A stretch of 63,985 bases of DNA, the filler included, from Elsinoe ampelina (Eukaryota), in the NCBI GenBank assembly GCA_010093995.1. It is 4 parts of 3 records of this genome, joined end to end, with 100 filler letters (N's around TTAATTAATTAA, not from the genome) between each part and the next. Parts side by side here need not be neighbours in the genome. Positions count along the whole stretch, not along the records: positions 1 to 31,917 come from ML992511.1; positions 32,018 to 38,289 come from ML992514.1; positions 38,390 to 62,225 come from ML992514.1; 1 more part is not named here. One strand, given 5' to 3'. A model generated the notes under the pieces. That model was given only the letters and a program-made list of their open reading frames with translations. It was not told where the DNA came from and ran no database searches. A program made the position numbers and the translations under genes. Numbering within the stretch: the first letter of the stretch is position 1; each line of letters begins with the position of its first letter. Shown piece after piece: positions 11,641 to 61,315 of the stretch.

Positions 11641-13542
11641 ATGACTGCTTCTCAGCACTTTATGCCTCATCACAGGCGTGGCATCGATGAGCTCGAAGCT
11701 GACCGGCGGCGGGGTCTACCACAGGTGGTAATGGCCTCGGAGCTGAATGAAGAGAACCAGGATCTGGTCCGACAAGGCATTCAACCAGTACGCATTACAT
11801 TGTGTTGATGAGAATGTTCCGCTGAAGGCCACCAGGTAATGAGACGAGAGTTTACGCAGCTCTCGACGGTCGCGTTCGCCGCCAGTGTCAGTGCCTGTTT
11901 TGCCACGGTGTGCACTACCTTCCCCTTTTCAATCCGAGCTGGAGGGGCTGCGGCTGCCGTCTGGTGCTGGTGGGGTGGCGGAATCATGGTCTACACGCTC
12001 GTTCTATCAGTGGCAGAGATCACATCAGCCTACACAACGTCTGGGGGCATTTACCATGCGGCTTCACAGCTTGCTCCTCCCAAGAGAGCCGCTTTGGCGG
12101 CTTGGGTAGTTGGCTGGCTCAACCTTTTCGGTCAAATCTGCGGTGTTGCCAGCGTCGAATACGGTGCAGCTGAGATCCTGCTAGCGACTTGCTCTATCAT
12201 CACAGACGGCACGTACAAACCCAACAACCGACACACCGTGGGAGTTATGGTACTAGGCACCTTTCTGACAGGGTTCGTCAATTCCATGAGCACAAAATGG
12301 TTATCCAAAACGACGGTTGCATACATCATCTTCCATGGCCTCGTTATCGTCACCTGCTGCGCAACCCTTCTAAGCATAAGCGACGACAAGCACACCAGCG
12401 CCTATGTGATGTCCCACTTTGAGTCCTCCTCGGGCTGGCATCCCAGCACCTACTCCGCCCTCTTTGGTCTCCTCTCCGTCTCCTGGACAATCACAGACTT
12501 TGAGTAAGGCCCTCTCCTCCCCTTTCCCCCTGTCCGCAACTGACCACCACCCCCTCCAGCGCCTCCTCCCATATCGCCGAAGAAGTCCGCCACCCCGAAA
12601 TCGTCGTCCCCCGCGCCATCGCCCTCGGCATGCTCCTCGCCTACATCTTCGGCGGCATCTTCACCACCACCCTCGCCATCGTCATGGGCGACCCTGCCTC
12701 GATCCTCTCCACCCCCCTCGGCCAACCAGTGATCCAAATCTTCCTCAACGTGCTGGGGAAACACTACGGCGCCCTCTTCGCCTTCACGGCCTACCTCATC
12801 CTCAAGATCAGTGGTATAACGGCCATGCAAGCCCTCGCGAGGACGGAGTTTGCTTTCAGCAGGGACAAACTCATCCCTGGGCATAGGATATGGGTGAGGA
12901 CTTGTGCGCGGACGAAGACACCGGTTTACGCCGTGTGGTTGTGCGTGGTGGTCTGCGCGGCTGTCAACCTGATCGCGCTGGCGTCGACGGTGGCGATATT
13001 GGCCGTGTTCAACGTTTTCGTCATCGCGTTGGATCTGAGTTATGTAGTGGTGATTCTCCTCAAGGTTCTCGGGGGCAGGTGGGCGCCTGGGCCGTTGCAT
13101 TTGGGGCGGGCGAGTAGGTGGTGTAATTTGGTGGGCGTGGTTTGGACGGTGTTTATCGCGGTGATGTTTGTGCAGCCTGTTGTGAGGCCTGTGGAGGGGC
13201 AGACGGTAGGTTTTTGATCTCGGGCTTGGCGGTGGTGATGCTGATGTTGGACAGATGAATTATGCTTCGGTCTTCTTTGTTGTGCTGCTCGTGTGGATCT
13301 TCGCTTCGTGGTGGTTCGTCGGGAGGAAGCATTTCCGTGGTCCGGCGGCGCAGGTGGAGATGGTGGAGGAGACGGGGATGGCTGCTTCGATGAGGACAAT
13401 GCCTTGTGCGAGAGTGGAGAGTCCTCGACCGAAGCACGTTGATGTGGTTGAGGTGGATCCTGTTGCGTCTGGGTCGAGTAGCGCGCAGGAGTCGTTGGAG
13501 ATGAAAGAGGTGGGAATGAGGAAGCATTCGGGTCCACCATGA
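11641..13542 (+). CDS. Amino-acid/GABA-type permease (APC superfamily), 4 exons
   Basis: SVAEITSAYTTSGGIY, VGWLNLFGQ, DFDASSHIAEE after splicing, FAFSRD, PGPLHLG, MNYASV; introns 11788-11835, 12504-12559, 13206-13254. Confidence 0.9.
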
Positions 13543-13637
13543 AGACGGTACTGTATCGTGTCTGGGTGTAGGGTATAGATGATGTATGAACGAGTATTTC
13601 TACAATGTCTGTTATATGCTACACTCTCTGTGGCTAT

Positions 13638-15683
13638 CTAGTCCCAGCTGACGCCCTTCTTCCACTCTTCATACTCCCTCTCCAGGCTACGCATCGAGTC
13701 ATCATGCCTGAATCCATCCGTCATCCTCCTCGTCTCATACTCCTCCCCTCCTCTCACCCTCTCCTCCCCCTTCACCGGCTCCCGCTTCGGCCTATCCTCC
13801 CTCAACTCCCTCCCCACCTCCTCCGTCTCCTTCTCCACATCAAGCCAGCATCTCAAGAACCCCCCAACATCAGTGTTCTCCCGATTCCCCGCCAGCCTCT
13901 CCCTAACAGCCTTCATCCACCCATCATGCCCATCCTTACCCCCCTTCCCGTCCTTGCCCCTCTTACTATCTCTACTCTCCGACAACACCGCCGCAGACGA
14001 GTAAATATTCACGTCCGCCGCCGTGTGGCCGTGGGTGCTCCACCCGATCTGGGCGCGGCGGGAGATCATATCCGCCATGATCCAGACGGCGAAGACGGGG
14101 CGGAGGATGAGGGCGTTGAGCTCGCTTTGGAGGGGTGGGAAGCCGAGGTGGGATGTGACGAGGGTGGTGAGGAATTTTTCGAGTTTGCGGGTGTTTTTTT
14201 TGCGGGCGAGGAGGGTGAGGGGGTGGGTGGTTTGGTCTGTGGAGGAGGACGGGGGGACGGGGGAGAGAGGGAGGAAGCTGCCTAGGTGGGAGTGGTATTC
14301 TGCTGCGGTACGTTCGGCGGAGTGGGTTGCGTTGTGCAGGGCTGAGGGGTACCATTGGTAGTGTGGGTAGGTGAGGTCGAGTTGGCGGGCGATGGCGAGA
14401 CCGCCGGTTTCGTGGTCGCTGGTGGCTACCATTAGGGTTGGGGTGGTTTGGTTGTTGATGAAGTCGAGGACGACGCGCATGGTGGCGTCGTAGGCGAGGA
14501 CTTCGTGGACTTGGGCTGCAGGGTCATTGATGTGGCCTGCGTGGTCGATGCGGGAGCCTTCGATCATGATGAAGAAGCCTTGGTCGTTGTCGGCTGTGGC
14601 TTCACTGAGGAGACGAAGGGCGGTGGCAGCGCTCTCGGCGAGGGATGGGTAGGTGTCGTTCTCGAACCGACGGTCGATCTCAAAAGGTACATCACCGCCT
14701 GCCCAGAGGCCGAGCAGAGGAAGGACTTCTTTGCCGCGCGAGGAGAGGGCGTCGAACTCTTCCCGATTGTCGATGTAGGCCCATCCTTTACGGCTGGCTT
14801 CATCGACAATGTCTCGATTGTCTACACGGCAGCTACCATGAGTGCTGCTGCCGAGAAAGTGGCATCTTCCCCCTCCGAGGATGATGTCAATGGGTGAACC
14901 AGTCGAGTTTCCAAGATGGTCCAGCCCTACCATTTGTCCTGCAATGTCATCCTCCATCTCTCTTCTGAGCACATGGCTGCCGAAGCAAGCAGGTGTGGCA
15001 TCCGTCACCCTTGTAGTCACCACCACTCCCGTCATGTATCCTGCTCTTTTTGCTGCTTCCATGACTGACGGACAAGGTGTCCCGTCTGGTAGAACCGAAA
15101 TGGCACCATTGTAGCTCTTCTCACCGCAGGAAAACGCGGTAGCACCAGCAGCACTGTCCGTGACCAGAGAAGACGAAGAACGTGTCCTGCTCTGACCCAG
15201 CAGCAAAGAGTCGAGGAGCAACGTGTGGTTGAAGGAAGCCTTGGAAATGAGCTGAGAGAAGGACCTGGTCAAGGAGAGGGATGAAGGTCCCATGCCGTCC
15301 GACACCATGAAGATAAGGTTCCTCTTGCCATGGGGGCGGACCTTTGCCGAATCACTTGGACGAGGGACGGCAGTGACAGTCGATGTTGGAACCGGAGCAG
15401 GCTTGGAAGGGGAGGTGGAGGGGTCAGAGGGAGCAGGTAGGCGGTCGTGTGTCGCATGCTGAAGAAGCACAGCAAGGATGATTATACCGATAGTCGCGAG
15501 GAAGGCCCAAATGAAGGCTACCGTCTCGCGCAGACGTCGCCATTGTACCTCGGAGAAGTTCAAAGGGAAGTTGTAGGAGCGGGACTGTGGTTGTCCTGTG
15601 AGCAGAGCATCTTCCTCTGCCGCTGCTTGAGAGTTGTGCGAGGAGGGTCGTCTGGCGAGCAGAGGCTCAGTGTCGCGTGCCAT
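13638..15683 (-). CDS. PHO8: Vacuolar alkaline phosphatase (type II membrane anchor)
   Basis: IFMVSDGMG, TDSAAGATAF, TDATPA, EGSRIDHAGH, TSDHETGG, GHTAADV; single N-terminal TM. Confidence 0.95.
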   Translation of the reverse strand: MARDTEPLLARRPSSHNSQAAAEEDALLTGQPQSRSYNFPLNFSEVQWRRLRETVAFIWAFLATIGIIILAVLLQHATHDRLPAPSDPSTSPSKPAPVPTSTVTAVPRPSDSAKVRPHGKRNLIFMVSDGMGPSSLSLTRSFSQLISKASFNHTLLLDSLLLGQSRTRSSSSLVTDSAAGATAFSCGEKSYNGAISVLPDGTPCPSVMEAAKRAGYMTGVVVTTRVTDATPACFGSHVLRREMEDDIAGQMVGLDHLGNSTGSPIDIILGGGRCHFLGSSTHGSCRVDNRDIVDEASRKGWAYIDNREEFDALSSRGKEVLPLLGLWAGGDVPFEIDRRFENDTYPSLAESAATALRLLSEATADNDQGFFIMIEGSRIDHAGHINDPAAQVHEVLAYDATMRVVLDFINNQTTPTLMVATSDHETGGLAIARQLDLTYPHYQWYPSALHNATHSAERTAAEYHSHLGSFLPLSPVPPSSSTDQTTHPLTLLARKKNTRKLEKFLTTLVTSHLGFPPLQSELNALILRPVFAVWIMADMISRRAQIGWSTHGHTAADVNIYSSAAVLSESRDSKRGKDGKGGKDGHDGWMKAVRERLAGNRENTDVGGFLRCWLDVEKETEEVGRELREDRPKREPVKGEERVRGGEEYETRRMTDGFRHDDSMRSLEREYEEWKKGVSWD

Positions 15684-16735: not shown

Positions 16736-17639
16736 TCTGCCTTGTTCGCTCGATCGGCGAGCCTTGTCAGAGATAAAGTTGCGATCCGATCAGATTACGG
16801 CAATGATCTCCGTCGGTCGATAGGTATCAGTATGCTAGTTCAGTCGCCGTCGAGTATGTTGAGATCAGAGGGGAGTGTGTATTGATGGAAGGGACAGATA
16901 GGAAAAGACCACGGTATGTCAGCAGCGCGGAAACTCGTAGTAATACCTAGCTGAAACCCGCAGGCAAAAAACCTGACCTGATCTCCGTCTGCAGGGCCAA
17001 GCTCAACAGGCAGGATCAGAAAGGCGGATGCTGTCGGCGAGGTGCCATGTGTCACGATTGTGCCTTCCACTGGAAGATTCGACTGACCGAGTGTACCGCT
17101 GGTAGGGTCGAGCAAACTAGGCAAGTTCGTGCCTGACAATCGTCAGCAGTACCGGTCAAGTGATCGCGCGGTCGGATCTTTCGGCGGGGCAGGGTGAGGT
17201 GAGAATATGAGATGGCTGGGGTTTTTGCTATGGAGAGCAGTCATGTCATGCTTTGCTATCCTCGTTTCGACTAGCTCCGTTTTGGTCAGGGCACGGCAAT
17301 TAGTGACGAGTGCCGAGCCCAAACTATCGGTCTCAATTACAGCGAGAAATATAGCAAAGCAACAGAACTGAAGCCCGTCCAGGAGGCGCGTATCGAATCT
17401 TTCAACACACGCCTTGTTGACATTCGGCATCTCTTGCAGCTGCGGTAAGTACCCGTCGTGATAACTATGTCCCCAAATGCGTTCGGGACGTTGGACGCCT
17501 CGCGGGAGCTGAACTGAAACCTTGGTTTTGTGCCTGTCCCTCCATCAGCAGGCAGCGACCTCCATTCAGTGATCAATCAACAGTCCTCTACATTTCAACC
17601 TCAGCTCCACATCACATCACTCCAGTCCCATCTTCCGCC

Positions 17640-18888
17640 ATGGGTGTCAGCAAGGCCCCCCCACCAGCGCCCTACACCGACGACCCCCTCCCCTCGTCCA
17701 CCTCCGCCCACTCCCTCGACCCCCTCAACGACCTCCCGCCTCCCTACACCGACACCCCAGATCCCACCCCCACCCCGCCCTTCCCCGACCCCGACCAACA
17801 CCCTCTCCACCTCAACCCCCCCGGCCTCCCCCCCATCAGCTCCTACCACACCATCTCCCCCACCTACCACCCGCCTCTCCCCAGCAGCCGCCCGGACACA
17901 AAATCCCAGACAACCTGGACGCAACACGGGCCCTTCTCCCTCTCCGCGGACGCCCTCGAGCTCATGATCAAAGAACAATCGCGCTTCCCGCCGCACCTCT
18001 CGGTGACGATCCGGCGGGACCCACGAACGCAGCAGCCACCGCGACGGCAAATCCGACCGGCACGAAACCGTCACCGACTTCGATTTCCACATCGACGTCA
18101 CCCGTCTCCTGTCCCGGCGCATCGGCGCAGGGGACCCTTTCCTCGACGGACGCATCAGGGTCATCGACGAGGGGAGGAGGGGACACCGCGGGGGTCGGTG
18201 GCGGGGTCACGAGCCCCATGTCGTATGGGAGGAGGATCGGGAGGGGCAGAGCACGAGGCTGGCGCTCAGGCGGTGGTGTGAGATGTTCGTCGCGGACCGG
18301 GCGGGGTGGAAGAGTTTTGGGTTCAAGAGGTGGGTCGAGGGGTTTGATAAGGTGAGGGTGAGGCAGTTGGTGGAGACTGCGGTGCGGGGGACGGGGTATA
18401 TGGGGCGGGTGCATGTGGATTTTGCGGAGAGGCAGAATGAGGTTGTTGTCTTCAGTCCGGGGAGGATTAATGCGTTGCGCACGATGGTGTGGGTGAGGTG
18501 GTTGTTCTACCTCACTTTTCTGTGGATCGTGAGTTGGCCGGTTTTGTTCTTTTTGACGAAGCGCTATGAGGTGGTTGATGGGGTGTATCAGTATCGGGCG
18601 GGTGGGACGAGGTATGGGAGTGTGGCGGTTCAGGACGAAGGCGATTGGTTCGCCCAGTGGGAGAGGTCGATTCAGAGGGCGGCGTGGGGGAGGGTCAGGG
18701 GCGAGATTGATTGGCGGTATAGGCAGGAGACAGAGGATGCGTTTGCGAGGGGAAGTCAGGGGCAGACGGCGGCGCCCGTATCGACGGGGAACTCGGTGGT
18801 GGATGGGATGGTTAATATATTGGGCATGGGAGCGGATTTTGTGGGTCAGATGGACAGGAGGATGGGGTGGGGGAGAGATGAGTATTGA
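17640..18888 (+). pseudogene. Fungal membrane-associated protein gene with a single +1 frameshift near 18012-18016 (pseudogene or sequencing error)
   Basis: Frame of ATG 17640 (PPPYTD motifs) reads to PPHLSVTIR. The +1 frame from 18016 reads GTHE..TVTDFDFHIDVT..RWCEMFV without stops into the 18283-18888 ORF (FYLTFLWIVSWP). Confidence 0.7.
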
Positions 18889-19160
18889 GGATTGTCGTCA
18901 GCTGAAGAAATGTGTTAATGTATACATTAATGCCTTTCCACTTTGGCAAGCATGGTTTCATCGGCATTGTGTCTGGGTCAAAAATTCTGTACATTTGGGA
19001 TGCATACCCACTACTGCTTTTCTCTTCCACTGCAACCCACGACTTCAAAACAAACCTGGTATCTGCCCTAACAATATCAAAGCTATCCTTCCATAGTCGC
19101 CATCCATGCAACTGGTAGTATAACGACGAACCCGCGCCTCCTCGTCAACCAATTCTGTCG

Positions 19161-20492: not shown

Positions 20493-20860
20493 ATTGACCA
20501 GTGAGGCTTGGACGAAAGAGAGAAAGAAGACCGGGATACCCACAAACCTGGCACCTGGTAGACCCAAAGGGAGGTCCAACCAAGGAGGTTATGTACAACT
20601 CCCTACCTCCAACCCTGACCTCCACAACATCTCCAGTTTTCCAACCTGGTTCAAGAAAAATGCCAATTCTCTTCATCTGGCCATCTGGGAGCCCAACGCG
20701 TGTGAGTGCGCGGTGCTACCGTGAAACAGTAGACATGGAGGGCACCTCCGAGAGTGACTTACCATGGGTCGGGAGAGAGAGAGCGTCGGCGCAAGCCACG
20801 GCTGTCAACAATGCGTTGCCCGATCTGGGTTTTGACGATCTGTGCGCATCGATCCATGTA

Positions 20861-21226
20861 CAGTCAAAGCTGGCTATACCGTTAGCTGTCCTTACCGTTA
20901 ATCTCTCTATACCGTTCAACTCGTGTGTCACCGTTCATTTTCCCATACAAAAACTAACATCTCTCTCTTTACCGTTCCGTTCACGATTTCGACCCTGGCT
21001 ACCGTTCAGTCTATACCGGATTAGGAAGTAAGCTAGCCCGCTTGGGCAAAGAGCTTGGCAGTAAGTTTGTAAGAGCCGCATTACTTGGCGTTTTTGTTCG
21101 AAACTAGGCCTATTCTAGCCGATCTCGCGAAGGAAAACGCCAAGCCTGGTCACCTTATACCGATAATCTCTCTATACCGTTCAAAGCCTAGTTCACGAAG
21201 CCTAACGGTATAACCAGCTTTGACTG
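20861..21226 (+). mobile_element. 366-bp MITE (Tc1/mariner type), copy 1
   Basis: 25-bp TIRs cagtcaaagctgg(c/t)tataccgttag, flanked by TA on both sides, no transposase. Confidence 0.92.
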
Positions 21227-22886
21227 TACCTGGGAACAAGCTTTGGTCGCACCCCTGAGATGGTGGCGTTGACCTCAGGTACGGCGTCAAGTTTCGCAAG
21301 GACCTAATTCGGGGTCGAGATGTGTCCCGCCGTGTACCGAAGCTCGCGCGAGTTTGGGAATCCTCTTGACATAGGGTGGCACCGTTCGTGTTCAACGGCG
21401 TCTCAGGACAGAACTTGAGGAGGGTAACCGGCTTGCTTGGAGGATTGAAAGCATGCAGCAGCATCTGAGATCAACACGATTGATTGTGGGTGATCGTCAA
21501 AGCATGATGATCCTGGTTGTGCTTGGGATGCTTGCCCAGAGTCGATTGGTGACACGGTTTAGAGCGAACAAAAGTGTAAGAAGATTACGAGGGCTCGAGA
21601 GGTGGAAAATGGTTGATCTTCGGGCCGGAAAAGCAGTCGATTGGTTGAACTTTTGGTTGAAGTTTTGAGGCACAAAGCCCCCAATCAATCAACCTCATCA
21701 ATGCCAGACATCTTCTGCTACTCTTGCCGTCAATTATCCTCCAAGCACATTGTTCAGGTCTGACACAATAGATGCCGTTAGTGTATCAAGCACATATTGT
21801 ATCGACGCGTTGTCACCAAGAGCTTGATACTCGCATTCTTCATGATCCTTCAACAATCACCCGCCGACCGAGAGTTGACTGGCCCTAACGTCCCTGCTCG
21901 CTGCGAACCATGGATCTGTGTCACCGTGCCGCCGGAGCACCCGACTGGCCATTGACTGCCACTTGCAGACCACACTGCGGAGCGTGGCCACCTGTCATGC
22001 TATCACGCATTGACAGGAAGACTTGAGACATCTTAGAGGGTTTTTGCCTCCGATGGATTATGCAAGGGTCTCACTGAAAGGATACAGCCCTATACTTGCT
22101 AGACCGTAGGTCAAAGTCAATCTACGAGGTCAAGTTGAGTCTCGGTTTCCTTTGCGAGGGAAACCCTGCGCCTTTTCCGATTGGTGCTTGCACATTGATC
22201 CTTTCCGAGTCATCCAGGAGAAGTCGATATAGCACAAGCCCAAAAGGGTAACAGGTACTCTCTGCTCTCAAGTTCATGTGAGGCTGATGTGTATCATACT
22301 GGACACATATCAACGACACACAACACCAGTGAAGTATCGTGCATGGTTCGATGTCTTGACGTTGGTCGACCTATACATGACCTCGCAAGCATGTGCTGAG
22401 AATCTGGAGATTACTCCGTAGTAGGCCAGACAGACGTCTTACGCATCCCGCCGGACCACTACCTTCTATCCGAACGACCTCCGATCTCTCAGAGTACGTT
22501 GCCAACCATCCAGTTGACGATGTACCAGCCTCTTATCCCCCAACTCAATGGACCTACAACGATGGTACGTTGACAACCCCTGCTCTAGAATCTGGGCTGG
22601 GCCCTGGACACAAGCAGATTACGGACGACAAAGCCCAACCACTCTCACAGCAACCATTCCTGCAATCCAATCCATGGTACTACTCCTTGAAGTTTCCTGT
22701 GCTTTTTCTCTGTGATCAGCAAACTTCACCCAGCGATCCTGTCCTACGCCTTTTGCATAAACTTGGGTATCTCGTTCTCACCCAAAATCCTCTACATCCT
22801 GCCCTGCCCTGCCCTGCCCTGCCTGGCACACAGACGCTTCACCCTCCCTCCATCCCCACCAACCACCTCCATACACAACCCCTCTA

Positions 22887-23252
22887 CAGTCAAAGCTGGT
22901 TATACCGTTAGGCTTCGTGAACTAGGCTTTAAACGGTATAGAGAGATTATCGGTATAAGGTGACCAGGCTTGGCGTTTTCCTTCGCGAGATCGGCTAGAA
23001 TAGGCCTAGTTTCAGACAAAAACGCCAGGTAATGCGGCTCTTACGAACTTTCTGTAAAGCTTCTTGCCTAAGCGGGCTAGCTGACTTCCTAATTCGGTAT
23101 AGACTGAACAGTAGCCAGGGTCGAAATCGTAAACGTAACGGTACAGAGAGAGATATTAGTTTTTGTATAGGAAAATAAACAGTGACACACGAGTTGAACG
23201 GTACAGAGAGATTAACGGTAAGGACAGCTAACGGTATAGCCAGCTTTGACTG
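22887..23252 (-). mobile_element. 366-bp MITE, copy 2, inverted relative to copy 1
   Basis: Same TIRs and TA flanks; about 22 substitutions and no indels versus copy 1 by hand alignment. Confidence 0.92.
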
Positions 23253-23318
23253 TAATCCCTTCCCTTCTTCTCGCACATTCCCCTCCCCCTACCCTTCCCA
23301 CCCTAGTCCCCTCCTCAT

Positions 23319-24923
23319 CTAAGCCCCCGGACTCGGCCACCCCCCTTGTCCCCCATGGTCACTTCTACTCGACCACCCGCCTCCCCCCCCTCCCACTATC
23401 CTCGTCTTGGCCATCAATCCCACCCCCGCCATCCCCGCACCGCCCGCGCTCACTGCACTGCCCATGTAACTCGTCGCCGCGGTACCGGCCGAGCGGGCTT
23501 GGGATCCTGAGCTGGGAGTGGGGGAGAAGGAGGCGTGGGTGCTTGCTGTGCTTGCCGTGTTTGCTGGAGGTGGGTCAGTGGTCGAGGAGAAGGAGCTTGC
23601 GGGTGGTGGGTCGGGGTTTGAGCTACTGGAGACAGGAGGGCGGATGGGGACGATTTCGGTGTCGATGGAGAGTTTGGGGGTTGTGGATCGTATGAGAGGT
23701 GGGACGGGGAGGCCGAGTGTTGGTTGGGGCTCGGTTTGTGACTTGTGGTTCGGATGGGGCTGGTGAGATGATGGGTCTGGTCGTCGAAATGTGGTAGAGG
23801 GTTCTGCGATGGGGGACGTTACAAAAGGCCTGGAGAGTGCTGTCTTTGCTTGCAGGTCGTTTGCGAGTGGCAGAGGAGATTCTAGGTCGGCAACGGTTGA
23901 GCTTGCTCGTACTTGGGGTCTTATTGGCGTGGGAGATATAGGCTCTGTTCGTCGCCGGGAGATCTGGAATCTATGCCTCGGACTGTGCGCTGGTGAGAAT
24001 ACGACTGGCTTGTTCGTGACATAAGGGCTGATGAGAGACCCCGCTGGACGCTCAAGTAGATGCCCTAACCGCCGAACCGTGGCAGGACTGCGTTGGCAGA
24101 AGTCTGTCGCTGGGGTTTGTGGAATGTTGGGCGTGACAGGTGCACTGTTCACTACTCTTTCGGCTGGGTGAGACTGTTCTATGCGAGGCGCTATCCTGTT
24201 TGCATCTTGAGCGTTGCTCGTAGGACCTTGATCGGATTTGTCATTTCGTCGAATCTCGCGAGGGAGTCCGAAGGGTCTTTCTGAGATCGACATGGGCGAG
24301 TTGCACAGAAGTTCTGGGCCGAGAATGTGATCGGCTGCTATCGGGGTTGGCGGTAAGTTTGTACTCAGTGTTTCTTCCACGCGAATTCGGGTCATTCCAT
24401 GGGTACATGGTGGATCAATCGTTTGACCATTTCTTGGCTGCGCGGGTCCAGGTGTCCTAAGCGGCGCTGGCATAATGGATGTATCTATATTCTTCGTCAA
24501 CACAGGACGACGTTGAGACCAAGCGTGTGCTTCGTCGATGACGCCCATCGGTGGTTTGCCTTCGAAAAGCGCTCTGAGCTGGGATACCGGTAACGTGGCA
24601 TACCTGCGCTTGTCCTCGCTCCACGGTCGGCTGCATGCGTCTGGGGAACTCATTGTCTCTGATCTAGGCACTGGACGCCGCTTCACAGCATTTTGAATGT
24701 CCTTGCGGGCAGAACTCGTTGGTCCTCCTCCAGTCGCAGGAGGGAGTTCAGCAATTTCGTGCCCGACTGAAGGGATCTCTTCCAAGCGAACTGATGGATT
24801 GTTATCCTTTGTAGGAATCTGTCTGTAAAGCTCGCTATCGTCGCAGTACTGAGTTTCATGCAGAGTGGCGAGGGCCGGGAAATGCTGCACAGATGCGTTC
24901 GTTGACGGCAATGGTCTGCCCAT
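23319..24923 (-). CDS. Pro/Ser-rich 534-aa ORF, in-frame continuation of the NLR-like gene beyond a single TAG
   Basis: Junction reads GAA TAG CCT ATG in one frame (24932-24921); composition matches the NLR tail. Confidence 0.45.
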   Translation of the reverse strand: MGRPLPSTNASVQHFPALATLHETQYCDDSELYRQIPTKDNNPSVRLEEIPSVGHEIAELPPATGGGPTSSARKDIQNAVKRRPVPRSETMSSPDACSRPWSEDKRRYATLPVSQLRALFEGKPPMGVIDEAHAWSQRRPVLTKNIDTSIMPAPLRTPGPAQPRNGQTIDPPCTHGMTRIRVEETLSTNLPPTPIAADHILGPELLCNSPMSISERPFGLPREIRRNDKSDQGPTSNAQDANRIAPRIEQSHPAERVVNSAPVTPNIPQTPATDFCQRSPATVRRLGHLLERPAGSLISPYVTNKPVVFSPAHSPRHRFQISRRRTEPISPTPIRPQVRASSTVADLESPLPLANDLQAKTALSRPFVTSPIAEPSTTFRRPDPSSHQPHPNHKSQTEPQPTLGLPVPPLIRSTTPKLSIDTEIVPIRPPVSSSSNPDPPPASSFSSTTDPPPANTASTASTHASFSPTPSSGSQARSAGTAATSYMGSAVSAGGAGMAGVGLMAKTRIVGGGGGGWSSRSDHGGQGGWPSPGA

Positions 24924-24926
24924 AGG

Positions 24927-43666: not shown

Positions 43667-44114
43667 GCGGGGAAAGAGGGAAGTTGGAAGATTGGTGCAG
43701 ACAGAAATGCTTTTATGATTATGGGATAGATGGTTGAGCAATCGACCTTTTTTGATTTTGAGTATGTCTATAGAGTGGATGAGTAGTGTTCTGAATGGTT
43801 ATGGTTTTGTTGAACTTGCTGTCGCTCTTCATTCGTTCGGTGTCGAACCTGCGCCGCGCGATACGCTGCTCATACCGGCTTAATCTCGTTGCTTGATAAA
43901 CTTTTTCTTCATGAATCCATGTCTCCTTGGTGACGATCGGCCAGATTACTCGATACGAGATGTTTTCCATCTGATCTAAGGTATCCTTCCAGCATGCGGC
44001 CTGCAAATGGTAGATAGACTTTGCGCTAACCCCGAACAGGAAATTTTACATGATCCTCGCAAAAAAAGTTGTGGAAGCCAACCCTCATTTCTATTTCGCC
44101 GGAATACTTGCACA

Positions 44115-47100: not shown

Positions 47101-47612
47101 CGGGGCGGGTAGTGGCCGGTCGGATGACCGCGCTGGCGAGGGCGGCGATGGAGGAGGTGGAGAAGAGAGACATGGATCCCGGGAGGCTGTTCAGTAGCGG
47201 GGAGGGGGATTTTGGGTTCGTGCTGTGTTTGGATGTGGGTGTGCTGGGTGGTGGTGAGGGCAGGGAGGGGAAGAAGCGGAAGGGAAAGGGAGGGTTTAAG
47301 AATTTGGAGCTGCCGACGCGGGAGGAGGGGTTGGAGGGGTTTGATCCGGTGGAGGGGTATTTGGGGGAGTTGCAGGCGGTGTATGGGAGTGCGGTCGTGT
47401 TTTTTTATGGTGGTAAGGGGAGTGATAAGATCTGTGGGTTGTGGAATCCCGTGACGGAGAAGAGGGGGTGGAAGGTGGGGTTGGGGTGGAGTAGTATGCC
47501 GGTGAAGGAAGAGGGGGATGTGGTGGTTGGGTTGAACAAGGAGGCGGTGTTGGGAGAGATGGCGAGGTTGGGAGGGGAGTTGGTGAAGAGGGTGGAGGTC
47601 GGGGGGACGTAG
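44115..47612 (+). CDS. UTP22: U3 snoRNP-associated protein Utp22 (Nrap family)
   Basis: INVVGSY, KDYQDHRYFYRRSYYL, WLKQRGF, VDHGPSAE..FRKFWGEKAELRRFKDGSI, QFESSTRWP. Confidence 0.95.
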   Translation: MTPDTKRRKLEHVSDDDEDASSFASFASVEAPDLAVTGNGENAASDISDEDIADVDEIDAGTISDEEKTSEDDSPELNGAGHGDGEDLAPAREKAPVPPPQKPPASAKSTKPVNGRVPASALTGGSIKVNVLKMQTEQLLEKTRPVRNSRAEAAEKALHDLKAIMEKLSSRGPSLILEAEKELIKRWRVAIPFPEPRPTQDAKLKPKFEKASAINVVGSYVSNVNLRSNKTTEIDMMVQMSDELFQPKDYQDHRYFYRRSYYLAWLAVGIRDSSESRYSIEFKNHHGNPLRPILVVRPSGDVSDSLSRWQINILPCISSKVFTDAKLLPSKSLVRLDDKAPQVEVGPTSLYNSSIQVDRQMTAYLKLIHSASSTCEDFKDAALLLRIWLKQRGFSSSIQSGGFGNFEVTALLAALISSGSLSPRYSTYQLFKATLQYLATKDALKSVVILGQTALRPESVPEVPLLFDGPRAHNLLFKMSTWSYKSLRAEARNTISMLGDNSSDQFDATFLLKQDTQHLKYDISLTLANSHLLDQRKDDYLTLMVYQRMYKILAQGLGDRAVEINLRSDPDGSWDLGSARPAWMTKGETTISIRLNPTNAGRTVDHGPSAEQKKEAAEFRKFWGEKAELRRFKDGSIMESLVWTPRNSDQDLVLDIINVIVSRHFGDSIAAALQQKGGNISKLIPHTGGLLAFQPAMDALKQLEDDVRSLEGLPLTIRQISAADEQARFASVHPPSATDPIDVVLQFESSTRWPNSLTAVQRTKAAFLLLISRLLTESNSNLHCRVGLENSEVQVLNQAFLEIQYPTIIFRLRLHHDLELSFLQSQLKSLSLTPPQRESTALALAAYKRTFINSPSHTSYITKLSTIHPTLSPTIRLLKQWFSSHHLTNHFPAPLIELLALQPFLHPHPHPIPSSPKTGFLRVLSFLSRWDWRTTPLLLPLSSPSSSSPSPSLTTSPTRFQAWRKLDPSLNRVVLFVAYECDAEGTAWTDVTQGGPGRVVAGRMTALARAAMEEVEKRDMDPGRLFSSGEGDFGFVLCLDVGVLGGGEGREGKKRKGKGGFKNLELPTREEGLEGFDPVEGYLGELQAVYGSAVVFFYGGKGSDKICGLWNPVTEKRGWKVGLGWSSMPVKEEGDVVVGLNKEAVLGEMARLGGELVKRVEVGGT

Positions 47613-47766
47613 GAGGCAGGGTATACCTCTCAAGATTGTTGTTGTCGCTGCAGTCGCGTGACATGGAAGCACACATTGGCCGATCCTCGCAGGCATAGCA
47701 ATTATTTCATAATCCATCTACCGAGTCTACGGTCCAGAATCGCGCCCGCAAAATCTCCAACTTGTC

Positions 47767-49666
47767 TCAATCATCAGGGTACTCATCCCTCACGTTACTC
47801 ACAAACCTCCTCCCGTCCGCATCCCACCGCTTGAAGTACCTCCCCGCCATACCCAACAGCTTCTCCCCGGGCTCTGTGTAAATCGGCTCGATGTTCTCTT
47901 CAGCCACGTACCTACTAGACCGATCCTCGCCGCTATAAATCATTAGCACCATCCCCACAGATGACCAGGTACCCAACTCACAGAATATTATAAAACGCCT
48001 GCGCCCTCCCATTCTCCAGATCATCAACCCTCATACTCGCGATCCAATTCTCATGGGCCCTGCACTGCCCATCCCACGCCCTGATCACCCCCACATACCC
48101 ATACCGCTTATGCTGAAACATCTGCCCAATCTTAAACTTGACCCCGGCCACCATGCCCTCCCGCAACTCTCCCTGCGACCCCTGACCATCGACCTGCACC
48201 CTCCTCATCACCGGCCTCCGATTCAGATCCTCGGCCTTCATCTCCGCCAACGCCAGCATCAACTCCCTCCCTCTCTGCGACCGCCCGAACAGCGGACCGA
48301 GGTACTTCCTCACCAACTCCAGATCCTCGGGGAAATGCTCCCGGAGCATCGTGGCCAGTTGCCCTGCATTCGGATGGTCCAGCACGGGCAAGAACCCCGG
48401 CCCACCACCTCCCGGTATCGGGGAGGGTACTTCTTCCACCAACGCCATGGCCCATAGATACGCGTAGAAAGCGTGGTGGTTCCCGATGAGGTCGTCGCGG
48501 TTGGGCGGGATGTTGTGCCATTCTTCGTAGGAGCGCATGATGTTGCGGCAGGTGCGGAGGACCATGTCGGCGGGTGAGGCGGGGGAGAGGTAGGTGGTGT
48601 GGAGGCGGGGGGGCACGCCGGAGTGGGAGAGTTGGGAGGCGAGGACGGGGTAGGGGATTATACCGCCGGATTGGTGGTTGGAGTGGGACCAGGGGGAGAT
48701 GTAGAAGCGGTGGGACAAGGGGAGGTCCGGTGGGGTGGTGGAGTTGGTGGTCGGGGTGGGGGGCAGGATGATGGCGAAGATGTGCCCAGGGAAGTTGATG
48801 CAGTGCGCGGTGAGGCCGAGGCGGGTGGCGACGGCGCAGAAGATGACGGTGGATTGGAGGGGGAGGGAGCATTTGGAGCGTTCGCGGAGGGTGAAGGAGA
48901 GGAAGTTGTGTTTCATGGCGTGGTAGGCGGTTTCTGTAGGGTCGAGGCCTGCGATGCCGTGTTCTCGCAGCCAGTCGGCGATGACGAGTGCTCGTAGCTC
49001 GGGGTCTTGTTCGAGGATGTTGGGATGATCTGCTTTGATCTCTTCTGCGGCTTTGTCCAAGGCTGAGCTGATTTCTGAGATGTTGCCCCATCTGCCACCG
49101 ATGATGAATAGGTCAAAGGCCGCGATGCTTCGCTCTAGACTTGGATTTGGATCTTGATTCATACGAGACCATGTTTCGAGTGCTGCTGCTCGGTTGATGA
49201 GACCTATCGCTGCTTCGGCGTAGTATCGTCTAGCCAGGACATCCTCGGCGGAATCTGGACAGCGCAGGTTATCTACAAGCATCTCTCGAGCCTCATAGCC
49301 AGACTCTGCAATCTTCTGGATCTTGAGATAACGTTCATGTTGTGTCGTCAATGCTGATTCGAATAATCGACTATTGTGCTGGTCTCTGGTGATTCTGTCG
49401 CAAAAGAGCCTCTTCCAAGGGGCGTTGGGCTGTCTTTGAACCACAGCAGGGTCAGTGTCATCGGTGAAATGCCAGTAATTAAAGACTGTGTCGCAAAAAT
49501 ATCTCCATAATAAAGGTTGATCCAATAGCTTGGTCATTCTTCTGCTTGTTGATCCTAGGTGGATAGCATCGCGTGGCGACAGGTAGTAAAAGATGGCTTG
49601 GAGTAGCTCATCAGGTAATCGGAGGATCGAGTCGCCAGCCATCATATCTATCGTCCGACCTCCCAT
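47767..49666 (-). CDS. F-box protein with transglutaminase-like core and YccV/HspQ domain (FBXO21-like)
   Basis: ILRLPDELLQAIFYYL F-box; SLPLQSTVIFCAVATRLGL..FPGH; FKIGQMFQHKRYGYVGVIRAWD; last exon RYVAEENI..GRYFKRWD after an intron near 47981-47933. Confidence 0.88.
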
Positions 49667-55183: not shown

Positions 55184-55524
55184 ACTGCTGGCTCTGATGA
55201 TAGAATGTGACAGACGATGGTTCAGCAAGTGTGAACGCTTCGCATGCAGGAATATTGTAGATCTTCCAAGTGCCAGACAAAATGCCATATATACACATGT
55301 CAGCCGCGATGAATGGTACTGCCGTGGATACCTTGGTGGACCATGACGCCATGTGCTTTTTGGGCCCCGCCATGTGCCCACCAACGCCCGACTTCAATCA
55401 ACCTTGAGCTCAAGCTTTCTTTCTCTCTTCCGTTTCCTGATACGGTTTGATCGTCCTGCTACCTTGCCCACAGCCGAGTCACCACCTTCCCGCCATTGAC
55501 AACCTCCCCGACCTCGTGTCTCAA

Positions 55525-56388
55525 ATGGCCACCCTAGCTCACTGCGCTTACTGCTTCGAAAGCCTGTCAGCAACCTTTGAGCAACGTCAGCCCCTCACCC
55601 TCCCGCGAGTAGAAGAGCTATGGGACGAATACACACAAGCGGTAGCGGAAGCAGACGGACCCGAGGATGAACAGGACACGAAAAGTGCAGGAGCTCCTCC
55701 AGCGAAACCCGTCGCCATCTCCCGACTACTGAACCCTTCTTCGTCCTCCAGCACATCCTCCCTTTCAACGACAAGAAGCTCAAACTCCTCCACCCCAGTG
55801 GATTCTGGTTCATCAAAGGCATCTTCCGTCTCATCCCTCCCTCGCACGCCCAAGGAAGCCTCGCATCCCCTCTTCGTGACCTGGAACACCGTCTCAAAAT
55901 CAGGCCACAAGTCCCTCCGCGGCTGCATCGGGACCTTTGAGCCTCTACCTCTGGCTCAAGGTTTACGAAGCTACGCTCTCACCTCAGCGTTCGAAGATCA
56001 CCGCTTCAACCCGATCCCCGCCTCCCTTCTCCCGTCACTACAAGTCTGCGTCACGCTCCTCACCAACTTCTCCGAGCCCGATAGCGATCCGATGAACTGG
56101 ACGATAGGCGAGCATGGCATACGTTTGAGCTTCGTGGACAAGGGAAGGAGGTATGGCGCGACTTACCTACCGGATGTTGCTGCCGAGCAGGGATGGACCA
56201 AGGAGGAGACGATTGTGAGCTTGATGCGGAAGGCGGGATGGACAGGGAATAAAGGGACGTGGCGGAATGTTAGAGGTTTGGAGATCGTGAGATATGAAGG
56301 GAAGAAGGTTGAGCTTGATTACCATGAGTGGGAGGAGTGGAGGGCTTGGGTAGAGGAGAAGGGCGCCGGGAAGAACGGCTTCAAATGA
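55525..56388 (+). CDS. AMMECR1 family protein
   Basis: HCAYCFESL, PLFVTW, LRGCIGTF, SAFEDHRF, ATYLPDVAAEQGWTKEET. Confidence 0.95.
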   Translation: MATLAHCAYCFESLSATFEQRQPLTLPRVEELWDEYTQAVAEADGPEDEQDTKSAGAPPAKPVAISRLLNPSSSSSTSSLSTTRSSNSSTPVDSGSSKASSVSSLPRTPKEASHPLFVTWNTVSKSGHKSLRGCIGTFEPLPLAQGLRSYALTSAFEDHRFNPIPASLLPSLQVCVTLLTNFSEPDSDPMNWTIGEHGIRLSFVDKGRRYGATYLPDVAAEQGWTKEETIVSLMRKAGWTGNKGTWRNVRGLEIVRYEGKKVELDYHEWEEWRAWVEEKGAGKNGFK

Positions 56389-56940
56389 GGTGGGTAGAAG
56401 GGAAAGAATCGGATAGATCGGAGTCTGGAGTGTATTTGGACTGTGTGTACTGGTAGTACACTGGTGGGATGACCATGCTGAGCAAGGCGTTAGGAAAGGT
56501 CACGGTATCCGGCTATCTCGATGATAGATGTTGCTTACGTTTAATGTGATCATGATGACCCTTGAGTTTCCTACCCTTCGAAGTGCAACCTGGACCAACT
56601 TGAAGCGTTCGCTCGGTACCTGCCCGACTCACGTGGTTGTCACGGTGGAACGCCCCACTTGAGATCAGCTACCTTTCTTATTCACCATCAATCTTTCTTG
56701 GCTTACCACTTTCCACCTCGTTCAGCTCTACATCAAGCTATCTAACAACCTTCGTATATCCGGCATAAGGATACCGTGAAACACCATCACCAGGCGCTCT
56801 CATCTCTCACTTAAACCCGTGGTCCCTTCACATTCGCCACCGAACCAGAACCTCACCGCATTCACCATCATGAGAACTCATCCCCACTAACGACCTCACT
56901 CTTCCCATCCGGCATCTGGCAACACCAAATCACCACAACC

Positions 56941-58479
56941 ATGCCCTTCACCACCCTCCGCCTCAACGAAAAACACCTCCACCCCAACCCACGCATCACC
57001 TTCATCAAACCCCTCCCCTCCCTCACCACCACCCCCCTCGCCAAGCTCTTCCTCCAAAAGATCGCCGCGCAATGCTACCCCATCATGAAAGCCCACTCGC
57101 TCTCCATCACGACCCTGGAAGAATTCCCCCCCAACCGCGAATTCTGGGGGCGAAACTTCAACGGCGGCGAGGTCATCCAGCTGGTCCTCCGACGCATGCC
57201 GACGCGACGCTGGGACGACGCGAGAGCCCAGTTCGTGTCGACGTCGGATTTGGGGGAGAATGGCGTTGTTGTGAGGGGTAATCGGGGGAGGTTGGATCCG
57301 CATTCGACCGAGTTTGTGGCGGAGAGGGACGGGCAGGATGAGGGGTGGTTGGGTTTCAAGGCGGTGCAGGCGGTGATGATGCATGAGCTGGCGCATTGTG
57401 CTGAGATGAACCATGCAAAGGCGTTTTGGAAGGTGAGGAATGTTTACATGGAGCATTTGAAGGTGCTGTGGAGGGAGGGGTATACGGGAGAAGGGGTGTG
57501 GGGACGGGGACAGATGTTGGAGGATGGGAGGTTTGAGACGGGTGGTGGAGGCGGGTTGGGGGAGGTGAGGGATTTGTGCGGTGGGGCGTATAGAGGACGA
57601 GGGAGGAGGGTGAGAGGGAAGAAGGGGAAGGAGAAGGTCACGTATCAGGAGCGGAAGAGGAGGAAGGTGGAGAAGACGGAGAGCAAATTCGGTAAGGGGC
57701 AGGAGGTGGGGGAGAGTGAGAGTTTGAAGTTCATGCTCGAGGGAAAGTTCAGTGGGAGTAAGCCGACGGTGGCGAAGAGTAAGCGTGGAAGGGAGTTGAG
57801 AGCCGCCGCAGCGCTGGCGAGGTTTGAGAAGGCCAAGGTGGAGGAGAACAAGGGGGAGGAGGTCCAGATCATGGACGAGGAGGAGACGGAGTCAGAAGGC
57901 AGCGAGACAGAATCAGAGGGCGATCATCATTCAGCGTGTCTGGTCGACGCAGAAGGCAAGCAGGTCAAGGATGCAAAGGGCCACGGGCTATACAAGGTCT
58001 GCGAGGACACGGATGTCAATAAGGACGAGGACGCGAAGAACGAACTCGATGAGCTGGAAGAGCTTGTCTACCTTCCCAAGGCCACAACCACATCAGTCCC
58101 CTCTGGTTCGAGCGAGACGCCCGTCACGTATAGCAAGAAGCTCGAAAGCACCAAATCCGCGATCGACATCGACGATGACGAGACTGAAGACGAAGAACAG
58201 CCCGTGGCCGTTGAGTCATCGGCTCCCTCAGGTAAGAGTGCGGGCCAGGCCTCAACCAGTCATATCAACGAGCAAGTGGCCGGTAGCTGCCCAGTCTGCT
58301 CGCTCGAGAATGATCCAGGAAGCGCAACCTGCATGGCATGCGCGCATGTGCTAGACACGAGGAAGATCAAGGGTTCCTGGCAGTGTACCTCGGATGAGTG
58401 CAAAGCGTCGGGGTACACCAACGCTGGAGACGCCGGGAGATGCGGTATCTGCGGACAGGCGAAGGGGACATGGCTGTAA
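56941..58479 (+). CDS. WLM-domain (Wss1-like) zinc metalloprotease with C-terminal zinc fingers
   Basis: LEEFPPNREFWGRNFNGGEVIQL, MHELAH..MNH, RELRAAAALARF, CPVCSLEND..CMAC and WQC..C..CGIC. Confidence 0.9.
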   Translation: MPFTTLRLNEKHLHPNPRITFIKPLPSLTTTPLAKLFLQKIAAQCYPIMKAHSLSITTLEEFPPNREFWGRNFNGGEVIQLVLRRMPTRRWDDARAQFVSTSDLGENGVVVRGNRGRLDPHSTEFVAERDGQDEGWLGFKAVQAVMMHELAHCAEMNHAKAFWKVRNVYMEHLKVLWREGYTGEGVWGRGQMLEDGRFETGGGGGLGEVRDLCGGAYRGRGRRVRGKKGKEKVTYQERKRRKVEKTESKFGKGQEVGESESLKFMLEGKFSGSKPTVAKSKRGRELRAAAALARFEKAKVEENKGEEVQIMDEEETESEGSETESEGDHHSACLVDAEGKQVKDAKGHGLYKVCEDTDVNKDEDAKNELDELEELVYLPKATTTSVPSGSSETPVTYSKKLESTKSAIDIDDDETEDEEQPVAVESSAPSGKSAGQASTSHINEQVAGSCPVCSLENDPGSATCMACAHVLDTRKIKGSWQCTSDECKASGYTNAGDAGRCGICGQAKGTWL

Positions 58480-58578
58480 TCAAGGAGACTCAAAGGAAGA
58501 GGGGCTTTGTCTGAACTTTGCATAGATACCCATTTGCTTTCCCCTAACCTCATGAATAACAAGATCACAACCCAGCCT

Positions 58579-61315
58579 CTACTCCTCCCACCTCCTCCAG
58601 TCGCCCGTCCCCACCGCCCCCCTGCTCTCGGTCCAAAATTCCACCCCAAACCCCTCCTCCTCTAGACTCTTGGCCGTAAAACTCCTCTCAATCACCAACC
58701 ACAGATCCCCCTCCCTACTCATCGCAGGATTAAGATCAATCTCCTCGGTTCTCACGCCGCCCAGACTATCCGCGTACTCGCCATCCGAACTCCTCGCCAG
58801 GATGACATGCTGGTACGCCGTGCCCTGCACGACCGACACGCGGATCAGGCTGCGCTCTTGCTGCTCCTCTTCGACATCGGCAGGGAGTTGTCTCGCTACC
58901 GCCACGAAGCGGGTGAGACGCTGCGGAAGGAGCAGGATGGCGTGGGCTTGGTCTTCGTTTGCGAATGATGCGGGCTCGATGGTGGTGCGTAGGCGGCCGG
59001 CGCCTTCGCTGGGCAGAAGCCGTAAGGTGACAGGCGCGTTGGAGTCGACGCGGAGCGTGAAGCGGCCTGTTTGACCTGTTTCGAAGGTGGAGCAGACGAT
59101 GGTGTAAGTACCGGCGTCGAGGAGAGGGTGTTTGGCTAGGGCGCAGGACGGGCGGTATTGTGCGCTGTCGGCGAGGATGTCGCGGGTCCGGACAGAGTGG
59201 ATGCGAGGCGTGGTGGCGGGGAAGCAGAGTTTGACGTTGACAGGCAGGGTGGGGTCCACGGTGTCGAGGAGGATGGACAAAGGGGTCGGACGGGTGAGGG
59301 TGATCGTATATTGGGGGTTCTGAGAGAAGATGGGGGAGCTGGTGTTGCCCCCCGCGGTGTCTTCAGTCCATGACCCGGGAAGGGAGGTGGAGTGGGAGAA
59401 GGCATCAGTCGCGAGGGAGAGATTAATGGGAGAGCAGGCGAAGGTGGAGAGCGTAAAGGTATTCTTCGCAAGTGGGAGTCCATCTTGGTCTGGGACGACG
59501 GTGTATGTCCGACCGGCTTTGAGGTCGTCGAGGCGGAGCAGATTCTGGAATGAGTCGACCAGAGGTGTGCGGTGGATTGAGTTACCCTTGAGCAGTATTC
59601 GCGACCCATTTGCGTCGTACAATGAGAGTTTGAGATATGCGGAGGAATGATGAGTCTGTCGTTCGCTGCAGAAATGACGGCAGAGAAGCAACCATGCGGT
59701 ACCGCCGCTGTGGACACTGAAAGAAAATTGAGGATTGTTGACGTACGTTCCGGATGAGTTACGGTTTTCGAGATCCCAGGTGAAGTGAATGTCTTCACGA
59801 TGCTTGAACAGACCAGGATTCCAATTGAGGTAGATCGACTCAAAATGCTGCGTCACGGTATTGAGATCCATCCAGAATGTGCCTGGTGACATTTGACTGT
59901 CTGCATTGAGCAAATCCCTTGATGATGGGACGGCATCTTCGTCCAGCTGTGTCGTTGTGCTCGGTCTTCGTGGTCTACTACCTGTCCATGTAGAACCCTC
60001 ACACCAGGGGTTCTTGACAAGCATAAGCTTTTGACCTTGCTCCTCACGCAGATCAAGAACTGCGTAGTCATGCTCGCTCGCCAATCCGATCTCTCGCTCC
60101 GTCTTTGCCGAGAACTTGCCGGTACCGAGCGTGATCATTACATCTCCATACTGGTGGGCCGCCCATACCCGTCTCCAAATATCAAGCGGCGTGGTTTCTT
60201 CACTGTACAACGTTAGTCATGAGTGAACGATTGGTAAATCTTATGCTTACCTCTCTAGAAAGACTTGGTCTGGAATCCACCCTGTGAGAATCCAGAGATC
60301 TGTGGCGGAATTACTGCCGGGAAAGTCGTAGCCTCCACGCACCTTGAGATACATCTTCTCTACAAGTGGAGGCCAGATGAGACTTGGATTGTTCCTGTCG
60401 AGAACATGTATGACTCGTTGCGTTTTGGATACCGGTATCCGATCATCGATCTCCACCCGTCGAAATGCTCCGTTGAAGTTCAATCTTGCGATATACTTTC
60501 CATTGGCTGATGCTCGGGGTAGCTGCAATTGATTGTCGTATGGAAACAGTATTTTGCCCATCAACTGCAAGATTCAATTTCAGTAAGTCGCGAGTCAACG
60601 TGTACTTACCCTCGAATGACCCTTTTGAGCCCGAGCGACACCTGCACACATACTGGCAACAACTGAGCAATCGGTCGCTGCATCCTGAACAAAGTCGATT
60701 GCTTCTGTCGGCAGCATGGTAGCCTTTGGACGTGGTCGACCATGTGATTTCCACGTCGGAGGCGGCAGTGCTTCATGAGGTCTTTTCCATCCTTCCAGTG
60801 ACGCGTTTTGAGTATGAGAGAGGTTGAATTGAGTATCATCGAGGAAGAGATTCTCGCCAGGCTTGAGCTCGAACTCGGCTTCGAGTGGTGTCGCTTTCCA
60901 TGGCGGAAACTTGCTTCCATTGACATAGGACGCCTTGAGAATGATGATTTGTTCGGCTTTGGACAATTGGCGTGTCGATGCAGGCTCACGAAGCTCTCTC
61001 GGCTTGGGAGCGTCACTAGGAAGATTGACACCGAAGACGGAATTCCGATTGGAAGAGGTCCATATTCCAGATGTCTTGATTGACTCTGCCCTATCCAGTA
61101 GGCGTTTGACTTCATTGTTGGCGGCCTTCTTGGATGTTGCATCTTTGCACAGTTTAACCCGACTCATGGCCTTTTCGGCCTCTGCCAGCACCAAGTCAAG
61201 GGCGGCATCTTTGGTCTTCGCTCGTTCTAGCGCGATATCTAGCTGCTAATCCAGTCAGGGTCAGTAGAGGGGTAGACGCGAGACCACATACATGTTCTGA
61301 GGAATGTGATGCCAT
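58579..61315 (-). CDS. palB: Calpain-like cysteine protease PalB/Rim13 (ambient pH signalling), 4 exons
   Basis: QDAATDCSVVAS (Cys), HDYAV (His), KNPW (Asn), GGYDFPGSNS; short first exon MASHSSEH 61315-61292. Confidence 0.93.

Follow-up and report, generated by a model that had tools for sequence, protein, structure and literature searches.

Mirror-symmetric C-to-G skew zones near gene ends in Elsinoe ampelina: a compositional footprint possibly left by strand-asymmetric repair or conversion

The skew of base composition at fungal gene ends has been unexplained since 2011 and was previously seen only as a weak average; it is described here as discrete, near-saturated and mirror-symmetric units. 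The units were found in a 63,985-nucleotide stretch of the genome of Elsinoe ampelina (GenBank assembly GCA_010093995.1), composed of four parts of three records joined end to end and referred to below as the window. Nine zones of the window are C-rich on the top strand and turn G-rich at a sharp flip, and they are a genuine compositional footprint. The zones are lineage-amplified and widespread, stable across the genus and mostly placed a few hundred nucleotides before the stop codon of a gene. Our tentative reading, held with considerable doubt, is that they result from repair or conversion that treats the two strands differently at stable sites of breakage within genes, mostly near 3' ends. 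A narrower and less likely form of this reading makes the sites recombination hotspots with strand-asymmetric biased gene conversion. If that form is true, a second conversion bias exists beside GC-biased gene conversion (gBGC) and is the cause of fungal gene-end skew, and a single genome sequence would suffice to map hotspots to about 100 bp. The flip centres are located to about 100 bp, so that maps of crossovers, breaks, origins or R-loops can discriminate directly between competing causes. The force behind the zones is able to rewrite conserved proteins; it matters for codon-usage, selection and phylogenetic work on filamentous fungi, and it misleads gene prediction.

Nine zones of C-to-G skew

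Zone centres were located by a 400-bp step statistic with a calling threshold of 0.3, which placed them at 12877, 14059, 18138, 23480, 47080, 48384, 56093, 57196 and 58904; all nine zones described in the initial annotation were thus recovered in their places. At this threshold the window holds nine C-to-G steps and three G-to-C steps, the latter at 13518, 47744 and 56585, each between neighbouring zones. The 50,250-bp gene-rich part was shuffled 200 times under each of three schemes: single-base shuffles gave no C-to-G step against the nine real ones, 30-bp block shuffles a mean of 0.01 (maximum 1) and 99-bp block shuffles a mean of 0.5 (maximum 3). Shuffling synonymous codons inside the 16 modelled genes (100 shuffles) left a mean of 4.4 steps and at most 5, so that amino-acid choice and non-coding DNA hold part of the signal and silent sites the remainder. 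Over pooled 500-bp arms the GC skew is -0.43 on the left and +0.49 on the right, and the AT skew +0.02 and -0.11, respectively. The switch takes 0-194 nt per zone (logistic 10-90% width) and the arms are 400-850 nt long. No common motif is evident by eye at the nine centres, where the CpG observed/expected ratio reaches a maximum of only 1.16.

The skew persists at synonymous and intronic sites. In transcript sense, four-fold degenerate sites carry C at 0.59-0.77 in the 500 nt before the flip (background 0.28; eight genes) and G at 0.53-0.70 in the 700 nt after it (background 0.22; eight genes). Two-fold sites, in the same sense, carry C at 0.87-0.96 and A at 0.66-0.89 before the flip, and G at 0.81-0.96 and T at 0.42-0.85 after it. 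The original description of C(+A)-rich and then G(+T)-rich DNA therefore holds for C and G; its A/T part is weak over all sites and clear at two-fold sites. All three introns that lie in arms match the skew of the arm, namely the two permease introns already singled out as C-rich (12504-12559, C30:G7 in sense) and G-rich (13206-13254, G20:C6), and a third at 47933-47981 (G18:C5), whereas the bias in three control introns is at most 14:9. The third intron, in the gene of zone 6, is spliced out in two contig sets that are presumed to be RNA and cover parts of zones 5 and 6 without any differing letter. The arm skew extends to the flanks on the side of the untranslated regions and to non-coding DNA, and it leaves a footprint in the proteins: proline makes up 11.7% of residues in the C arm versus 2.6% in the G arm, and glycine 3.5% versus 12.9%. 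Both peptides that had been cited as evidence of a skew-shaped Utp22 protein are present in its open reading frame (ORF).

Selection for long C/G RNA fold-back, or for G-quadruplex (G4) or i-motif structure, had been suggested as a source of such composition. Zone segments do fold stably, at -0.35 to -0.46 kcal per nt compared with -0.27 to -0.35 for control segments, but relative to synonymous shuffles (eight zones, 14 shuffles each) their z-scores run from -1.43 to +1.12, and there is no pairing beyond what local composition gives. The inverted repeats are short, low-complexity and 71-93% matched, and two zones have none; the introns, the upstream DNA and the DNA beyond a transposable element in zone 4 are skewed as well. 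Specific RNA fold-back and inverted repeats were rejected as composition effects, and selection for structure is a highly improbable cause.

The zones and the features within them are as follows; gene names were verified by Pfam and reading frames by translation.

Zone 1, 12250..13590 (outer limits approximate), + strand: flip at about 12860, 682 nt before the stop of an amino-acid permease gene (PF13520)
Amino-acid permease gene, coding sequence 11839-13542, + strand: introns 12504-12559 and 13206-13254
Zone 2, 13620..14750, - strand: flip at about 14040, 402 nt before the stop of an alkaline phosphatase (PHO8-like) gene, 13638-15683 (PF00245)
Zone 3, 17500..18940, + strand: flip at about 18140, 500 nt after the start and 748 nt before the stop of its gene
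Zone 4, 22400..23950, - strand: flip at about 23480, 161 nt before the stop of ORF 23319-24926
Element resembling a miniature inverted-repeat transposable element (MITE), 22885..23254, no strand assigned: 27-nt terminal inverted repeats and TA ends; inside the zone 4 arm, itself unskewed
Zone 5, 46400..47640, + strand: flip at about 47065, 547 nt before the stop of the UTP22 gene, 44115-47612
Zone 6, 47700..48980, - strand: flip at about 48420, 653 nt before the stop of an F-box/transglutaminase-like/YccV gene, 47767-49660; convergent with zone 5
Zone 7, 55380..56520, + strand: flip at about 56090, 298 nt before the stop of the AMMECR1 gene, 55525-56388 (PF01871); the weakest zone
Zone 8, 56600..57900, + strand: flip at about 57190, 250 nt after the start and 1289 nt before the stop of a WLM protease gene, 56941-58479 (PF08325)
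Zone 9, 58500..59750, - strand: flip at about 58890, 311 nt before the stop (58579) of a PalB calpain gene (PF25435 and PF00648)

Zones occur on both sides of convergent gene pairs, as had been reported: zones 1 and 2, with a reverse step at the spacer near 13600, and zones 5 and 6. Zone 8 is the tandem neighbour of zone 7 and lies at the 5' end of the WLM gene, its C arm extending 340 nt upstream of the ATG; the 3' end of this gene is unskewed, the G arm lying 600 nt before it. The arm of zone 9 ends at the spacer without entering the WLM coding sequence. Zone 3 spans the entire gene 17640-18888, which has no Pfam match. The frame of this gene shifts at 17990-18020 (near 18006), about 130 nt from the flip, with no intron candidate, and the break is either an assembly error or a true frameshift. 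The arm of zone 4 continues into non-coding DNA flanking the MITE-like element on both sides. A second copy of this element (370 bp, 94% alike, 27-32-nt terminal inverted repeats) lies inverted relative to it at 20859-21228, and the differences between the two copies are mostly in contexts typical of repeat-induced point mutation (RIP). The PNP_UDP/TPR gene of the same region (23319-30441, - strand) carries a TAG in its reading frame at 24927-24929, past which 535 further codons stay open without a Pfam match; ORF 23319-24926 beyond this TAG may be a pseudo-extension, a separate gene or the product of stop read-through, and its status as a gene is uncertain.

The gene-rich DNA of the window has a GC content of 0.53 and is interspersed with AT-rich blocks having RIP-type dinucleotide indices. 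Three such blocks (1-940, 31300-41680 and 61700-63985) have TpA/ApT ratios of 1.86-2.03, contain assembly gaps and are without skew zones.

Mirror symmetry and anchoring to gene ends

The two arms of a zone mirror each other. In the five strongest zones, counts on the C-rich strand of the upstream arm are C111:T1 and A37:G6, with A22 C260 G25 T15 at four-fold sites, and those of the downstream arm C167:T9 and A86:G28, with A28 C166 G23 T12. Symmetry of the arms was unrejected both for these zones (p 0.095, 0.095 and 0.19) and for all nine (p 0.22, 0.86 and 0.65), an unrejected test being no proof; in 29 genic zones of other fungi, where symmetry is partly imposed by the selection of zones, C/(C+T) is 0.80-0.82 in one arm versus 0.81-0.83 in the other within 400 nt. 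GC content peaks at the flip: at four-fold sites within 300 nt it is 770/951 (0.81), versus 1603/3175 (0.51) elsewhere, and genes with larger flips tend to show a larger rise in GC (rho 0.34, n=135). The skew fades outwards, four-fold C in the upstream arm falling from 0.79 through 0.79 and 0.69 to 0.33 and fading by 600-800 nt. The zones accordingly combine two-fold symmetry around a narrow centre, decaying over a tract length, with a local GC peak and amino-acid drift against constraint of the kind looked for under biased gene conversion.

The flips are anchored to gene ends. Eight of the nine lie 161-748 nt before the stop and the remaining one, in the WLM gene, 250 nt after the start. Beyond the window, metagenome contigs were scanned at fungal UTP22 loci (the best 80 of 408, or 53 and 816 kb after removal of near-duplicates). 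There 29 of 34 zones lie inside genes, with flips 165-771 nt before the end predicted by a home-made gene finder, which in a control on the held-out window gave the right strand for eight of the nine zone genes and missed the zone 4 ORF; an unadjusted gene-prediction model assigned two zone genes partly to the wrong strand. In genes longer than 1.2 kb the flip is nearer the 3' end in 6/8 cases in the window and 10/10 in the other fungi (16/18 combined, p 0.0013), although several UTP22 loci are orthologues from related species and the zone counts are not fully independent. The skew had been said to ignore gene strand and exon/intron boundaries. Introns do follow it; independence of genes does not hold, given the anchoring to gene ends. 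A change from C to G looks alike on either strand, so that its uniform polarity in + and - genes is automatic and no evidence. Flip size does not differ between convergent and tandem neighbours (75 vs 36 genes, p 0.46; 9/20 loci), and GC content at third codon positions near the 3' end is higher at convergent than at tandem ends (0.615 vs 0.534, p 0.0003).

Two weaker C-then-G steps of the window are below the threshold, one at 3150-3650 in apparently non-coding DNA about 250 nt beyond the stop of the AAA gene, the other at 19000-19600, where the gene that converges on zone 3 has its 3' end. A secreted-type protein gene at 42539-43800, without a Pfam match, is C-rich over its whole coding sequence and G-rich only past the stop, unlike the zones.

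The footprint is not confined to E. ampelina, and other fungi have zones of this shape in weaker form. Zone density is 9 in 50 kb here versus 33 in 1.21 Mb of the fungal UTP22 loci before de-duplication. Over the C-terminal 406 residues of UTP22, identity to the present protein is 90% in Elsinoe batatas, 73% in E. fawcettii and 64% in Sphaceloma murrayae. The amino-acid footprint is found at the same place in these three and in one further relative, is weaker in Myriangium and is absent in Dothideomycetidae sp. 11243; among the orthologues zone strength varies, as does the position of the flip within the C-terminal quarter. The WLM 5' zone is common to E. batatas, E. australis and S. murrayae. 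Averaged over 40 long non-UTP22 genes of other fungi, four-fold sites reach a C share of 0.39 at -450 and a G share of 0.33 at -150, with a C dip relative to the gene body in 27/40 (p 0.02) and a GC rise in 29/40 (p 0.002), both modest. Three loci (L034, L048 and L032) carry series of short tandem genes, every gene with its own zone. Two sister-species contigs (X12 and X13) match the window only in low-complexity patches of 25-42 nt.

Anchoring of this kind is what a mutation or repair bias bound to transcription would produce, whether it arises from factors of the termination phase, from R-loops or from cryptic transcription, sense and antisense, that starts at the GC-rich centre. Such a cause matches a proposal made in McLean & Tirosh (2011; PMC3315797), is possibly self-reinforcing, with G-rich exposed strands favouring more R-loops, and is the chief rival to break repair. 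Besides the flips nearer 3' ends in long genes, the termination of arms at spacers and the weak form of the pattern in the 40 long genes agree with it, and the G strand lacks A and C, as would be expected of a damaged exposed strand. It gives no reason, however, for equal mirror arms, for a GC peak at the switch or for a C arm that in long genes peaks beside the flip. The zone of the WLM gene is 1289 nt away from the stop, and the zones are on or off: five modelled genes, those for AAA, ISA1, DSC3, the secreted protein and the chromate transporter, are not G-rich in their last 250 nt. Fungal transcription starts have a C-rich coding strand (Fujimori et al., 2005; PMC555766), so that a bidirectional promoter at the flip would leave a skew of the wrong sign. 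The correlation of skew with expression reported in McLean & Tirosh (2011) is only very weak. We regard a transcription-bound cause as possible, if on the unlikely side.

Possible break repair at the flips

Mirror arms, the GC peak, fading and recurrence of the pattern at a 5' end fit one two-fold-symmetric process centred on the flip. Resection of a double-strand break runs 5'-to-3'. Were double-strand breaks to recur, or heteroduplex DNA to be repaired, at fixed spots a few hundred bases inside gene ends, the strand refilled or informed by the donor after resection from a central break would be the top one to the right of the break and the bottom one to its left, matching the G/T-rich strands of the zones. 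A bias letting the refilled strand gain G and T, either mismatch-type-dependent meiotic conversion or error-prone refill, would drive silent sites to G on the right and to C on the left, raise GC at the centre and fade over one tract length. Breaks at the flips, conversion rather than mutation as the force and the reason for a preference for 3' ends are matters of inference. A crude equilibrium fit of pairwise biases gave C over T 3.0, A over G 1.6, C over A 3.4-7.9 and C over G -0.5 to 1.0, which on the G strand are biases of A>G, C>T and T>G. Set beside the order of mismatch-repair efficiencies, the fit agrees with refill misinsertion or mismatch-type-dependent conversion rather than with poor C:C repair alone. 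The narrower proposal of stable intragenic recombination hotspots with strand-asymmetric biased gene conversion, favouring C on one side and G on the other, is unlikely as it stands.

The initial annotation had inferred a strand-asymmetric process at fixed centres, with resection at meiotic double-strand break hotspots as one candidate. Mirror arms, the GC peak and outward fading sustain the first part of this inference; its argument from polarity is empty and the sites are not free-standing. A symmetric break-repair reading is favoured here, and plain damage to the resected strand is not. In human meiosis the flanks of breaks lose C and A on the resected side (Hinch et al., 2023; PMC7615360). 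Given the geometry of resection, this loss puts G/T on the left and C/A on the right, the opposite of the flips, so that with resection starting at the flip, plain damage to single strands would leave the wrong polarity.

This reversal counts against break repair at the flips, as do the limits on the symmetry tests given above and several further points. Poor repair of C:C mismatches is ruled out as the main driver, C over G being the weakest fitted bias, and a rule that mismatches containing G are converted under-predicts G (0.03 vs 0.087). The zones are old, whereas Zymoseptoria hotspots turn over quickly, and in the account of Stukenbrock & Dutheil (2018; PMC5844332) GC-biased conversion there is weak or none in 10-kb windows. 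A hotspot footprint should also be independent of gene boundaries, and the zones are not: arms end at the intergenic spacers at 13600, 18950 and 58500, the PalB arm is absent from the WLM coding sequence (silent C 8-12 vs G 9-11 per 100 nt), as is the arm of PHO8 from the permease end (G16-17:C1). Arms that stop at spacers are a difficulty because a free-running tract should cross them.

The same geometry raises the alternative that the breaks lie in the intergenic spacers, with the inner arms formed by human-type damage to resected single strands and the outer arms by a second step, for example an extended displacement loop. Polarity at the spacers agrees with the human footprint (PMC7615360), zones are paired around three spacers, one of them tandem, and convergent partners resemble each other in flip size (rho 0.48, n=21, p 0.027, the pairs not being independent). 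Three other spacers are nevertheless one-sided or lopsided (PalB/WLM, zone 3 and zone 4), the 5' skew is no stronger with a tandem than with a divergent upstream neighbour (24 vs 49 genes, p 0.72, at low power), and an equal outer arm requires an additional mechanism. Spacer breaks are quite improbable.

Replication origins, with the lagging-strand template exposed on either side, had likewise been put forward. Origins are two-fold symmetric and the polarity of the flips is that of bacterial origins, whose leading strand is stated in McLean & Tirosh (2011) to be G/T-rich. Against this, an origin would be needed every 5.6 kb of gene-rich DNA, with arms of only 400-850 nt (about 600 bp), and the centres lie within GC-rich coding exons; the skew does not run across replicon arms between spaced origins. 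The leading strands of yeast, moreover, are C/A-rich. The flips are very unlikely to be origins.

Comparison with known skews and conversion footprints

Although no named feature had been thought to account for the zones, an average pattern with a name does exist, and it is itself unexplained. According to McLean & Tirosh (2011; PMC3315797), fungal genes are C-biased at 5' ends and G-biased at 3' ends on the coding strand, most species being C-biased with a small G-biased 3' region; the skew is also present at four-fold sites and in untranslated regions, alters amino-acid use and, as presented there, has no established cause. The zones resemble it in being C-biased upstream and G-biased near the stop, including at four-fold sites and outside coding sequence. 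They differ in being on or off per gene and near saturation, whereas the published skew consists of weak genome averages with linear ramps and a flat AT skew; the zones neither ramp gradually at the two ends of genes nor keep the AT skew uniform. They switch within 200 nt, have a peak of C and of GC beside the switch and carry two-fold A>G/T>C mirror shifts, and, unlike the published 3' skew, their signature recurs at the 5' end of the WLM gene. Taken as an average over genes, the zones would yield the McLean-Tirosh pattern. No paper describing the focal mirror form (on/off units, abrupt switch, C/GC peak and mirror A/T shifts) was found in a search that covered few subscription journals. The C>G skew on the coding strand at plant and fungal transcription starts (Fujimori et al., 2005; PMC555766) is similar to the C-rich upstream arms of the WLM gene and zone 3 near starts; as reported, it covers neither C arms kilobases from a start nor the G arm of the zones.

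Break repair or conversion at the flips finds counterparts in recombination. In Zymoseptoria tritici, also a Dothideomycete, conversion tracts have medians of 539 and 432 bp and a weak GC bias (Komluski et al., 2023; PMC10294615), similar in length to the zone arms, and 1435/2578 Zymoseptoria hotspots are in exons, with no enrichment at starts in that account (Stukenbrock & Dutheil, 2018; PMC5844332). Break sites are therefore compatible with anchoring to gene ends, hotspots in this class being mostly exonic and the published skew likewise reading the same on both strands. The zones share with fungal gBGC and intragenic hotspots a GC peak, an overriding of protein constraint, a tract-sized extent and an exonic position (Lesecque et al., 2013, PMC3649680; PMC5844332; PMC10294615), and mismatch-type-dependent repair is discussed there as the cause. 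Classical gBGC is strand-symmetric, however, and cannot separate C from G, and the G>A and C>T shifts of the zones oppose it in the respective arms. Around human break hotspots, as in the zones, substitution differs between strands and has two-fold symmetry, up to about 1-2 kb from a fixed centre (PMC7615360; Palsson et al., 2025, PMC11922761); the human signature is an excess of mutations, whereas that of the zones is a saturated composition.

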